This document shows positions 2,020 through 4,846 of a stretch of DNA of 4,846 nucleotides, in pieces. The first letter of the stretch is position 1. The number at the start of each line of letters is the position of its first letter. The DNA is from a virus (lineage: Duplodnaviria > Heunggongvirae > Uroviricota > Caudoviricetes). Both the position numbers and the translations under genes were made by a program. The stretch lies in the IMG/VR virus record IMGVR_UViG_2713896779_000029; one strand, written 5' to 3'. The notes under the pieces were generated by a model that saw only the letters and a program-made list of their open reading frames with translations, was not told the DNA's origin and did not search any database.

Positions 2020-2476
2020 ATGCCTATAGATTTGGTTTTACCTTACCCGCCAACGGTGAACACCTACTGGCGTCGTCGTGGCAGTACATATTTTATCTCG
2101 GAGGAGGGAAAGCGTTATCGCCGGGCAGTGGCGCTTATTGTTCGCCAGCAGCGGCTGAAATTAAGCCTGTCCGGAAGGCTGGCGATAAANNNNNNNNNNN
2201 NNNNNNNNNNNNNNNNNNNNNNNNNNNNNNNNNNNNNNNAAATTAAGCCTGTCCGGAAGGCTGGCGATAAAGGTGATTGCAGAGCCACCGGATAAGCGCC
2301 GTCGCGACCTGGACAATATTCTGAAAGCACCGCTGGATGCGCTGACGCATGCGGGAGTGCTCATTGATGACGAGCAGTTTGATGAAATCAATATTGTACG
2401 TGGTCAGCCAGTATCTGGTGGACGACTGGGTGTGAAGATTTACCAAATAACGCATGAAGGACAGGCCCAAAAATGA
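2020..2476 (+). CDS. rusA: RusA-family Holliday junction resolvase (crossover junction endodeoxyribonuclease), interrupted by an N gap
   Basis: ATG 2020 preceded by aagagg RBS. N-terminal LPYPPTVNTYWRR and C-terminal PDKRRRDLDNILKAPLDALTHAGVLIDDEQ...SGGRLGVKI match RusA hallmarks (LPWPPS, RRRDLDN with catalytic Asp, DALT, DD, GGRL). Removing the N run plus one copy of the flanking 32-bp repeat joins the two halves in frame to give about 124 aa. Confidence 0.85.
2158..2271. repeat. Perfect 32-bp direct repeat (2158-2189 and 2240-2271) flanking a 50-N gap; probable unmerged contig-end overlap
   Basis: aaattaagcctgtccggaaggctggcgataaa occurs identically on both sides of N run 2190-2239. Confidence 0.8.
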
Positions 2477-3294
2477 AACTGGAAGATTTACCGAAGTACT
2501 ATTCACCAAAATCCCCCGGCCTGACAGATGCCTCTGCCTCGACGTCAAAAGATGCGCTGAGTATCACTGATGTGATGGCAGCGCAGGGCATGACACAGAA
2601 TCGGGCTGAGATGGGGTTTTCTGCGTTCCTTGGGAAAATGGGCATTAGTATGAATGACAGAGAGCGGGCAACAGAATTGCTGACAGAATATGCACTCAGT
2701 CGGTGTGATTGCGTGGCGGCGTTAAGAAAACTCCCGGCAGAAATAAAACCGGCAGTGATGCGCATTATGGCTTCGTATGCGTTTGAAGATTATGCCCGTA
2801 GCGCGGCGAGCAAAAAACAGTGCCCCTGCTGTCACGGAAAAAAATTTATTGAAAGCGAGGTTTTTACAAACAAGATCCAGTATCCGGATGGTAAGCCGCC
2901 AGTATGGGCAAAGTGCACAAAAGGCGTGTATCCGTCTTACTGGGAGGAATGGAAAAAAGTCAGGGAGGTGGTAAAAGTTGCCTGTCCGGAGTGTGGCGGA
3001 AAGGGGGAGGTTTCCACAGCCTGTAAAGATTGTCGTGGGCGCGGTGTTGCCATTCATCGTGAAGAGTCGGAAAAACAGGGTGTGCCGGTTTTCAGAAACT
3101 GTCAGCGTTGTGGTGGGCGTGGCTATGAAAGATTACCTTCAACGGAGGCATTTAATGCCATATGTAATGTAACCGATGCCATATCTCTTGATACATGGAA
3201 AAAAACAGTTAAACGTTTTTACGATACGCTGGTGGTGCAGTTTGATATTGAAGAAGCATGGGCAGAACAACAACTGAAAAAGGTGACCAGATAG
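2473..3294 (+). CDS. Q: Late-gene antiterminator Q (lambda Q family) with expanded zinc-binding region
   Basis: ATG 2473 overlaps the rusA stop (ATGA at 2473-2476); stop TAG 3292-3294. Blocks shared with lambda Q as I recall it: SPKSP, TDVMAA-GM, F/YxDYxRSAA, CxDCxGxG, CxRCxGxGYxRxP, and the C-terminal WxxTVKxxYDxLVVQ...VTR. It is 273 aa against 207 aa for lambda Q. Confidence 0.9.
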   Translation: MKLEDLPKYYSPKSPGLTDASASTSKDALSITDVMAAQGMTQNRAEMGFSAFLGKMGISMNDRERATELLTEYALSRCDCVAALRKLPAEIKPAVMRIMASYAFEDYARSAASKKQCPCCHGKKFIESEVFTNKIQYPDGKPPVWAKCTKGVYPSYWEEWKKVREVVKVACPECGGKGEVSTACKDCRGRGVAIHREESEKQGVPVFRNCQRCGGRGYERLPSTEAFNAICNVTDAISLDTWKKTVKRFYDTLVVQFDIEEAWAEQQLKKVTR

Positions 3295-3299
3295 CTTTG

Positions 3300-3342
3300 T
3301 TGATTTTTCCCGAATCTGTGGTAAATTTCCCCTAACGATGGG
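3300..3342 (+). promoter_or_regulatory. pR'-like late promoter with sigma70-dependent pause element (Q-utilisation region)
   Basis: -35 TTGATT (3300-3305), 16-bp spacer with TG at 3319-3320, -10 TAAATT (3322-3327), then 6 nt, then AACGATGGG (3334-3342). Lambda pR', from memory, has TAAATT-N6-AACGATGGG with identical spacing. Located 6 bp after the Q stop codon. Confidence 0.7.
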
Positions 3343-3376
3343 CTTTTTATGCCTGACGTTAGAAGATTTTTTACAC

Positions 3377-3398
3377 CCCGCCGCCAGGCGGGTTTTTT
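3377..3398 (+). terminator. Rho-independent terminator (tR'-like), about 45-65 nt downstream of the pR' start
   Basis: GC stem cccgcc (3377-3382) and ggcggg (3387-3392), loop gcca, followed by TTTTTT (3393-3398). Confidence 0.8.
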
Positions 3399-3503
3399 AT
3401 GACTGAAATCGCGTCAGTACAGTAAACGCGCTGGTGGCGGTGAATACCGGTCTTTCAGCTTGCTGGCTTTTTCGACAAGAGTTATTGGTGTGTCACGTTA
3501 ACC

Positions 3504-3553
3504 NNNNNNNNNNNNNNNNNNNNNNNNNNNNNNNNNNNNNNNNNNNNNNNNNN
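3504..3553. other. Assembly gap / masked segment (50 N)
   Basis: Run of exactly 50 N inside the tR'-to-methyltransferase intergenic region. Confidence 1.
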
Positions 3554-3693
3554 ATTTGTGGTAAATGGGCGGCTGGTGGGTGTTAGGGGCACTCACCAGC
3601 CATCTGCTCATGCGTCTGGATCACAAGCAAACCTCAGGCCCACTGCTTTGCGCAAAAGCAGAATGAGCCTATCAGAGACAGGCTTAATGATCC

Positions 3694-4752
3694 ATGCTTA
3701 ATACTGTAAAAATATCCAGTTATGAGTTAATCAACGCCGACTGCCTGGAATTTATGCGGTCGTTACCCGAAAATTCTGTTGACCTGATAGTCACGGACCC
3801 GCCGTACTTCAAAGTGAAACCCGCGGACTGGGATAACCAGTGGGTGGGTGATGAAGATTACCTGAAGTGGCTGGACCAGTGCCTTGCGCAGTTCTGGCGG
3901 GTGCTGAAACCAGCCGGAAGTCTTTACCTGTTCTGTGGCCATCGCCTGGCATCTGACACCGAAATCATGATGCGTGAGCGGTTTAACGTACTGAACCATA
4001 TCATCTGGGCAAAGCCGTCCGGACGCTGGAACGGGTGTAACAAGGAAAGCCTGCGGGCGTATTTTCCGGCCACAGAGCGCATTCTGTTCGCGGAACATTA
4101 TCAGGGGCCGTATCGCCCGAAAGATGATGGCTGTGAGGCGAAGGGCAGGGCACTGAAACAGCATGTGATGGCCCCGCTGATTGCTTACTTTCGTGATGCG
4201 CGCGCTGCCCTGGGGATAACGGCAAAACAGATTGCAGATGTCACAGGAAAGAAAAACATGGTGTCGCACTGGTTCAGTGCCAGTCAGTGGCAGCTGCCGA
4301 ACGAAAGCGATTATCTGAAATTACAGGCCCTGTTTGCCCGGGTGGCAGAAGAGAAGCATCAGCGCGGTGAACTGGAATGGCCACACCACCAGCTGGTCAG
4401 TACATACAGTGAACTGAGCCGACAATATGTCAGCCTGCAGGAAGAGTATAAAACCCTGCGGCGTTATTTTTCCGTATCGGCTGCGGTTCCTTATACGGAT
4501 GTGTGGACGCACAAACCCGTACAGTACTATCCCGGGAAACATCCGTGCGAAAAACCGGCAGAAATGCTGCGGCAGATAATCAGTGCGAGCAGTCGTCCGG
4601 GTGACCTGATTGCAGATTTTTTCATGGGGTCAGGTTCAACGGTAAAAGCGGCGCTGTCACTGGGACGTCGGGCGATTGGTGTTGAGCTGGAGACCGGACG
4701 TTTTGAGCAGACAGTCAGGGAAGTTCAGGATTTTATCAGTCAGAACGGATGA
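3694..4752 (+). CDS. DNA methyltransferase, N6-adenine/N4-cytosine type, beta class (motif IV before motif I); orphan, no adjacent restriction endonuclease
   Basis: ATG 3694, stop TGA 4750-4752. N-terminal ELINADCLEFMRSLPENSVDLIVTDPPYF carries catalytic motif IV (DPPY). C-terminal HPCEKPAEMLRQII...GDLIADFFMGSGSTVKAALSLGRRAIGVELE carries motif X plus motif I (FxGxGS/T SAM-binding). About 250 aa between them serves as the target-recognition region. Confidence 0.9.
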   Translation: MLNTVKISSYELINADCLEFMRSLPENSVDLIVTDPPYFKVKPADWDNQWVGDEDYLKWLDQCLAQFWRVLKPAGSLYLFCGHRLASDTEIMMRERFNVLNHIIWAKPSGRWNGCNKESLRAYFPATERILFAEHYQGPYRPKDDGCEAKGRALKQHVMAPLIAYFRDARAALGITAKQIADVTGKKNMVSHWFSASQWQLPNESDYLKLQALFARVAEEKHQRGELEWPHHQLVSTYSELSRQYVSLQEEYKTLRRYFSVSAAVPYTDVWTHKPVQYYPGKHPCEKPAEMLRQIISASSRPGDLIADFFMGSGSTVKAALSLGRRAIGVELETGRFEQTVREVQDFISQNG

Positions 4753-4792: not shown

Positions 4793-4846
4793 GGCCCTTT
4801 AGCTCAGTGGTGAGAGCGAGCGACTCATAATCGCCAGGTCGCTGGT
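4793..4846 (+). tRNA. tRNA with CAU anticodon, most like tRNA-Ile2 (ileX/ileZ type); 3' part truncated by the window edge
   Basis: ggcccttTAGCTCAGTGGTGAGAGCgagcgaCTCATAAtcgccaggtcgctggt: acceptor stem, D-arm (AGCTCAGTGG-GAGAGC) and anticodon loop CTCATAA with CAT at 4826-4828. Near-identical over the available part to my recollection of E. coli ileX. Elongator tRNA-Met cannot be fully excluded without the complete gene. Confidence 0.8.

Follow-up and report, generated by a model that had tools for sequence, protein, structure and literature searches.

A lambda-family Q antiterminator with four cysteine knuckles and a probable second zinc ribbon that is missing in lambda Q

Introduction

The lambda Q family of antitermination proteins (PF03589) is separate from two others, Q21 (PF06530) and Q82 (PF06323) (PMC7171158). 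In lambda Q the arm spans residues 114–152 and swings by about 75 degrees about the body–arm junction when the protein binds the QBE; residues near the zinc ligands touch QBE positions 11–13, the tip of the arm (residues 133–137) touches sigma region 4, and residues 110–112, 117 and 122–126 touch the beta' zinc-binding domain of RNA polymerase (PMC9388147). The Q protein described here resembles lambda Q (structures 4MO1 and 7UBJ–7UBN) in its nozzle segment, its body and its zinc-ribbon arm, and also in the position of its gene directly upstream of a putative pR', which is followed by a terminator. The two proteins are about 41% identical over their common parts and differ in that lambda Q lacks the counterpart of residues 114–181 and has a single zinc site. 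To our knowledge, all solved structures and most of the mechanistic work in the family concern lambda Q.

Two further proteins are close to the one studied here. The Q protein of phi80 (gp17, 269 aa) and YdfT/QuuQ of E. coli K-12 (250 aa) are about 40–41% identical to it and share with it both the pR' layout and a module in which two cysteine knuckles, A and B, flank a beta-hairpin. In phi80 Q a third motif, C, reads CxC and not CxxC, and the hairpin of YdfT is shorter (A–B spacing of 35 versus 54 in our Q). The DNA-binding regions of lambda and phi80 Q were reportedly addressed by Guo and Roberts in 2004, and phi80 Q is said to be an experimentally studied protein. Among the closest relatives is the 97% identical quuQ product of the Stx2a-converting phage Stx2_EH1910, which has the same gene order (rusA, Q, methylase, tRNA) and a near-identical pR' and terminator. 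In this phage stx2AB follows the tRNAs in the late operon, whereas the matching prophage of E. coli O121 RM8352 carries a TerB-family pseudogene and other genes there.

Outside the family, the cysteine-rich domain of DnaJ has a V-shaped hairpin fold with interleaved zinc centres (motifs 1 with 4 and 2 with 3), and its closely spaced motifs 3 and 4 belong to different zinc centres. This domain (PF00684; 1EXK) and its relatives anti-TRAP and BSD2 are likewise among the closest known systems.

Results

The Q gene and its family

The window, by which we mean the whole analyzed stretch of 4846 nt, contains among others the following genes:

958–2007, gene for a DUF968 (YdfU-like) protein
2473–3294, + strand, gene for the Q antiterminator (273 aa), a long, four-knuckle member of the lambda Q family (open reading frame list and Pfam)
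3694–4752, DNA methyltransferase gene
4793–4846, tRNA, truncated at the window end

The coding part of the Q reading frame (2473–3291, + strand) translates into 273 aa, and its start codon and the stop codon of rusA, the gene before it, overlap in the sequence ATGA. The product matched the Pfam family PF03589 ('Antiterm') over residues 178–265 with 171.8 bits (cutoff 26.7; E 3.3e-51) and, over its whole length, phrog_127 ('anti-termination protein Q-like', 3e-112), and it is 100% identical to RefSeq WP_000762899.1 ('antitermination protein') of E. coli O121 genomes. The predicted protein has a four-helix body with a helix-turn-helix, an N-terminal nozzle-forming segment and a Cys4 zinc-ribbon arm between the body halves (C184/C187/C210/C213, aligned with the lambda ligands). 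Its gene lies directly upstream of a putative late promoter, where a sigma-dependent pause element and a terminator follow. Q is a member of the lambda Q family, and its gene, family and architecture are already represented in databases by the RefSeq name, the Pfam labels on homologues and the PHROG consensus. Judged from its sequence, it is probably the ordinary late-gene antiterminator of a lambdoid prophage, predicted to be functional and built in the commonest architecture of the family.

The window contains three runs of exactly 50 N, at 901–950 (upstream region of the DUF968 gene), 2190–2239 (rusA) and 3504–3553 (intergenic or small-ORF region downstream of Q); open reading frame calls across them show stretches of X and are unreliable there. 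The C-terminus of the DUF968 protein is rich in Cys and His (CVCCGKPADDPHHLIGH...CREHHNELH) and resembles a nuclease motif of the HNH or zinc-finger type. K-12 Qin and the Stx2a phage likewise have this gene ahead of rusA and Q. Past the methyltransferase gene the matching O121 prophage carries three tRNAs (Ile, Arg, Arg) and then the TerB-family pseudogene. Insertion sequences were found near Q in the matching prophage.

Four cysteine motifs and a segment missing in lambda Q

The following parts of the protein were distinguished, all of them encoded on the + strand:

2473–2811, +, aa 1–113, N-terminal segment (nozzle/torus-forming region in lambda Q) and first half of the helical body (alignment to lambda Q 1–113, 1.6e-22; AlphaFold2 model against 7ubn_Q, TM 0.81)
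2812–3015, +, aa 114–181, module missing in lambda Q, a long beta-hairpin between knuckles A and B (unaligned in the comparison with lambda Q; AlphaFold2)
2821–2844, +, motif A, C117-P-C-C120-H-G-K-K (CPCCHGKK; CxxCxGxx), which also contains C119 (translation)
2845–2982, +, aa 125–170, predicted beta-strands 125–136 and 159–170 (12 residues each) with the tip 137–158 (AlphaFold2)
2983–3006, +, motif B, C171-P-E-C174-G-G-K-G (CPECGGKG) (translation)
3016–3126, +, aa 182–218, zinc-ribbon arm of the lambda type with motifs C and D, built as strand, helix and strand (alignment to lambda Q 116–152, AlphaFold2)
3022–3045, +, motif C, C184-K-D-C187-R-G-R-G (CKDCRGRG), aligned with lambda Q C118/C121 (translation, alignment)
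3100–3123, +, motif D, C210-Q-R-C213-G-G-R-G (CQRCGGRG), aligned with lambda Q C144/C147 (translation, alignment)
3127–3291, +, aa 219–273, second half of the body, which holds the helix-turn-helix in lambda Q

A phmmer search against PDB sequences placed residues 1–113 of lambda Q (7ubm_Q, 207 aa) on residues 1–113 of our protein and residues 116–207 on residues 182–273. Residues 114–181 (68 aa) stand against 2 aa in lambda Q, which accounts for the 66 aa by which the two proteins differ in length. An earlier note on this DNA had explained the length of Q by an insertion relative to lambda Q; this extra segment is real, but according to the alignment it begins at residue 114 and not at residue 117. 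Two other statements of that note agree with the alignment, namely that motifs C and D correspond to the two motifs of lambda Q and that lambda Q has two motifs and one zinc finger. Its residue and nucleotide positions for the four motifs were exact upon translation, although motif A is only CxxCxGxx, so that Q contains three full CxxCxGxG motifs (B, C and D) and a partial one.

For the conservation of the cysteines we used an alignment of 78 homologues that reaches down to 26% identity. Every sequence of this set has C210 and C213, and C117, C120, C171, C174, C184 and C187 are conserved to at least 90%, at a mean column identity of 52%. When the arm was aligned alone (42 sequences), all eight paired cysteines of motifs A–D were invariant. 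From the retention of eight cysteines at 26% identity we can infer that the four-motif pattern is not due to chance. The additional cysteine C119 is common within the clade of Q. Across the family the A–B spacing ranges from 14 to 63 residues, and the hairpin tip (residues 137–158), which is weakly basic, differs in length and sequence between homologues; the hairpin is the plastic part of the module. In many homologues (P0123, P0128, phi80 Q L003 1501–2307 and others) motif C reads CxCxGxG with one residue between the cysteines, a spacing that is unusual for a zinc knuckle and is kept in whole clades.

Likeness to DnaJ

The earlier note had seen in the four motifs the arrangement of DnaJ with two zinc ions. 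The resemblance of the knuckles is real, and the module is probably zinc-binding; however, the match to PF00684 (DnaJ_CXXCXGXG) stayed below the cutoff (29.8 versus 32.7 bits) and covered only residues 171–218, that is motifs B–D, on positions 1–52 of the 65 in the profile. The Pfam scan of Q gave no match to the DnaJ J-domain or the DnaJ C-terminal domain, and the NCBIfam DnaJ equivalog reached 23.4 bits at a cutoff of 377. In a comparison of an arm profile with the cysteine-rich domain of E. coli DnaJ (1EXK), motifs B and C aligned with DnaJ motifs 3 and 4 (E 1.7e-5 for the whole sequence, 19.5 bits for the best stretch). The likeness exists at the level of the CxxCxGxG knuckle, a broad class to which the arm of lambda Q belongs as well. 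Q does not belong to the family of DnaJ cysteine-rich domains, and its overall arrangement probably differs.

Prevalence of the four-motif form and direction of change

DNA at least 80% identical to the Q gene was found in 2494 of 5426 complete E. coli genomes. Using tblastn we obtained matches in 249 phage records, 131 of them with at least 80% coverage in one place; the full-length matches include phi80, ES18, SE1 and Stx2c and Stx2k phages, and the sampled matches of the lambda/P22 type fell into two pieces with the middle missing. All four motifs are present in phi80 gp17, in YdfT/QuuQ of the K-12 Qin prophage and in the Q protein of the Stx2a phage. Nearly all of the best 120 database homologues are 260–277 aa long, and most carry precomputed Pfam labels for both PF03589 and PF00684. 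When we examined representatives of 50%-identity clusters that cover both halves of the body, four cysteine pairs were observed in 30 of 49 and motifs C and D only in 10 of 49, several of the latter bearing the lambda motif sequences themselves. The extra segment also aligns to positions 115–162 of the 253-position phrog_127 consensus. The four-knuckle form is the norm of the family and lambda Q the exception. A supposed three-motif class (BCD) was rejected, as P0200, P0203 and P0208 show the exact YdfT motif sequences behind foreign N-termini and are probably fragments or fusions. The Q homologue of Serratia quinivorans (P0036) is labelled 'chaperone protein DnaJ' by its source, probably a misannotation that arose from the CxxCxGxG motifs.

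To order the two forms we calculated a neighbour-joining tree from the body columns only (aa 1–113 and 184–273, about 200 columns), midpoint-rooted and without support values. In this tree two-motif proteins occupy about five separate positions among four-motif proteins (lambda together with P0214, then P0185, P0165, P0266 and P0190). The body of the two-motif protein P0165 is 82% identical to that of the four-motif protein P0131, and what P0165 lacks is a cleanly excised segment that begins at the first Cys of motif A and ends at that of motif C; its motif C sequence is still that of P0131. Such scattered two-motif forms and this excision make a loss in lambda likelier than a gain in the present lineage. 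The opposite direction, in which a lambda-type Q with two motifs gained a second zinc module here, internally duplicated or acquired, with an unusual, DnaJ-like Q as the outcome, would fit the appearance of the segment as an insertion against lambda Q, the CxxCxGxG signature common to all four knuckles, which would allow an ancient duplication at the knuckle level, and the profile match to the DnaJ domain. We nevertheless regard it as unlikely, since the four-motif form dominates the diversity of the family, phi80 Q and K-12 QuuQ included, and the two-motif forms are nested within it. Moreover, a hidden Markov model of the C–D module matched the A–B segments only at the knuckles (10–17 bits per stretch), a comparison against a tiny database that says little beyond the motif about an internal duplication of the whole module. 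The claim of an acquisition in this lineage gives way to the prevalence data, the nested two-motif forms and the P0165/P0131 pair, by which the module is the default of the family. Compared with several gains of a homologous module, repeated loss appears the more parsimonious course. The sequences suggest that the family probably had the module from the outset and lost it on several occasions, one of these losses falling in the lambda/P22 lineage. Some of the short forms may come from prophage genes in decay and represent no functional protein.

Predicted structure and pairing of the knuckles

An AlphaFold2 model of Q with the 78-sequence alignment as input reached a mean pLDDT of 91.5 and a pTM of 0.80. 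The top Foldseek match was 7ubn_Q, the lambda Q chain of the loading complex with NusA engaged (E 1.4e-15, TM 0.81 by target length). The extra segment is modelled as strand 114–116, knuckle A, strand 125–136, a tip with two short helices (144–148 and 154–157), strand 159–170, knuckle B and strand 179–181. Behind the module follow knuckle C, strand 192–194, helix 196–202, strand 207–209 and knuckle D, the three elements of this arm corresponding to the B1–H3–B2 description of the lambda Q arm (PMC9388147). The pLDDT is 77–83 at the hairpin tip and above 90 in the strands and around motifs A and B, and these elements recurred in a separate model made for the arm by itself (pLDDT 87.7). The model of free Q most resembles lambda Q in its NusA-engaged, nozzle-folded state, with helices at 3–9 and 31–55 and a pLDDT of 62–66 at residues 11–30. 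In lambda Q residues 1–44 are disordered before NusA binds.

In the model, knuckles A (C117/C120) and B (C171/C174) lie at the foot of the hairpin, and most likely they hold a second zinc ion; AlphaFold2 models no metals, and this pairing is read from secondary structure and comparison. Four observations favour two tandem zinc ribbons, A with B and C with D, over the interleaved layout of DnaJ. A single long antiparallel hairpin is flanked directly by knuckles A and B, as in a classical zinc ribbon; the stretch from C to D has its homologue in the lambda arm, where both knuckles share one zinc; natural excisions remove A, hairpin and B as a unit and leave C and D behind; and the arm profile places B and C on DnaJ motifs that belong to different zinc centres. 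A true DnaJ-type domain, in which A and D would bind one zinc and B and C the other, could draw on the short B–C spacing, which resembles the single zinc site of anti-TRAP, but it demands that lambda Q re-paired two half-sites after the deletion of the other motifs, and we judge it improbable. One two-motif variant, P0190 (223 aa), seems to combine a B-like knuckle with D, without the cysteines of C and with 42 residues between the knuckles, which may reflect either plasticity in how the knuckles pair or an artefact of the alignment.

Very unlikely, finally, is that the extra cysteines form no structural zinc site and the module is a decoration that Q can do without, or senses redox state or metal and so modulates Q: natural deletions, the working Q proteins of lambda and P22 without the module and the frequent C119 would agree with this, but the A and B cysteines withstand divergence of their surroundings to 26% identity, both motifs bear the glycine signature of zinc knuckles, and the model is confident around them.

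Region downstream of Q

The following elements were assigned downstream of the Q gene:

3300–3342, +, putative late promoter pR' with sigma-dependent pause element (homology to lambda pR')
3300–3305, +, candidate –35 element TTGATT (read from the sequence)
3322–3327, +, –10 element TAAATT (read from the sequence)
3334–3342, +, pause element AACGATGGG, six bases past the –10 element and identical to that of lambda (read from the sequence)
3377–3398, +, intrinsic terminator, six G–C pairs followed by TTTTTT (terminator scan)

The promoter at 3300–3342 is taken as pR' by its homology to lambda pR'; a consensus promoter scan made no call at this site. The terminator lies about 45–65 nt past the putative pR' start and is, by analogy, presumed to be the target of Q-dependent readthrough. 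The order of TAAATT, 6 nt and AACGATGGG is held in common with lambda pR', phi80 and K-12 Qin, and equivalent terminators follow Q in phi80 (annotated) and in K-12 Qin. Given this common layout, the long form of Q presumably loads like lambda Q, at a promoter-proximal pause that depends on sigma.

The interval 3295–3400 would yield a short leader RNA of about 65–70 nt, and K-12 Qin has a similar unit. A 2026 preprint links Q genes of PF03589 with the prophage sRNAs PasD1, PasD2 and STnc100. An Rfam scan of the window found the truncated tRNA only and no sRNA family at gathering score over the leader between pR' and terminator. The 10-mer TGTGGTAAAT at 3317–3326, which overlaps the putative –10 element, occurs again at 3557–3566, 240 nt downstream and just past a masked run; the second copy could be a promoter-like site or due to chance.

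Discussion

Our findings are best explained by an ordinary four-knuckle Q of the PF03589 family with tandem zinc ribbons and an ancestral accessory module that has been lost repeatedly, a reading to which we assign a probability of roughly 0.7. In such a protein the N-terminal 113 and the C-terminal 55 residues would form the nozzle-forming segment and the helix-turn-helix body as in lambda Q, and the arm (residues 182–218) would hold its zinc by C184/C187 and C210/C213. Residues 114–181 would be a separable module between body and arm, near the DNA contact at QBE positions 11–13. As the module is inserted between the equivalents of lambda Q residues 113 and 116, it would lie in the hinge, inside the contact patch for the beta' zinc-binding domain. 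By analogy with lambda Q it may serve as an accessory buttress or a second arm in loading at pR', either by stiffening the hinge or by adding a contact to RNA polymerase or DNA. Since lambda and P22 work without it, the module appears to be accessory and not essential to core antitermination. A conserved hairpin base with a variable tip would suit a scaffold and a specificity element alike.

Only tentatively do we suggest that the A-hairpin-B unit is a functional second arm with its own contact in the loading complex (the beta' zinc-binding domain, sigma or extra promoter DNA) or a lock of the hinge. If it were a second arm, most lambda-family Q proteins, including some that drive Stx2a phages, would load in a way unlike lambda Q, and the only structurally characterized member would be an atypical, reduced form. 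The literature we searched contained neither a description of a second zinc module nor a test of its role.

Q is no new kind of protein, as phi80 Q and K-12 QuuQ have the same architecture. The finding rather concerns the model protein of the family: lambda Q lacks a conserved and probably zinc-binding module of 30–79 residues that most of its relatives have at the hinge, beside the contact with RNA polymerase. Because a 97% identical Q is encoded upstream of stx2AB in a Stx2a phage, this module could in principle bear on toxin expression.
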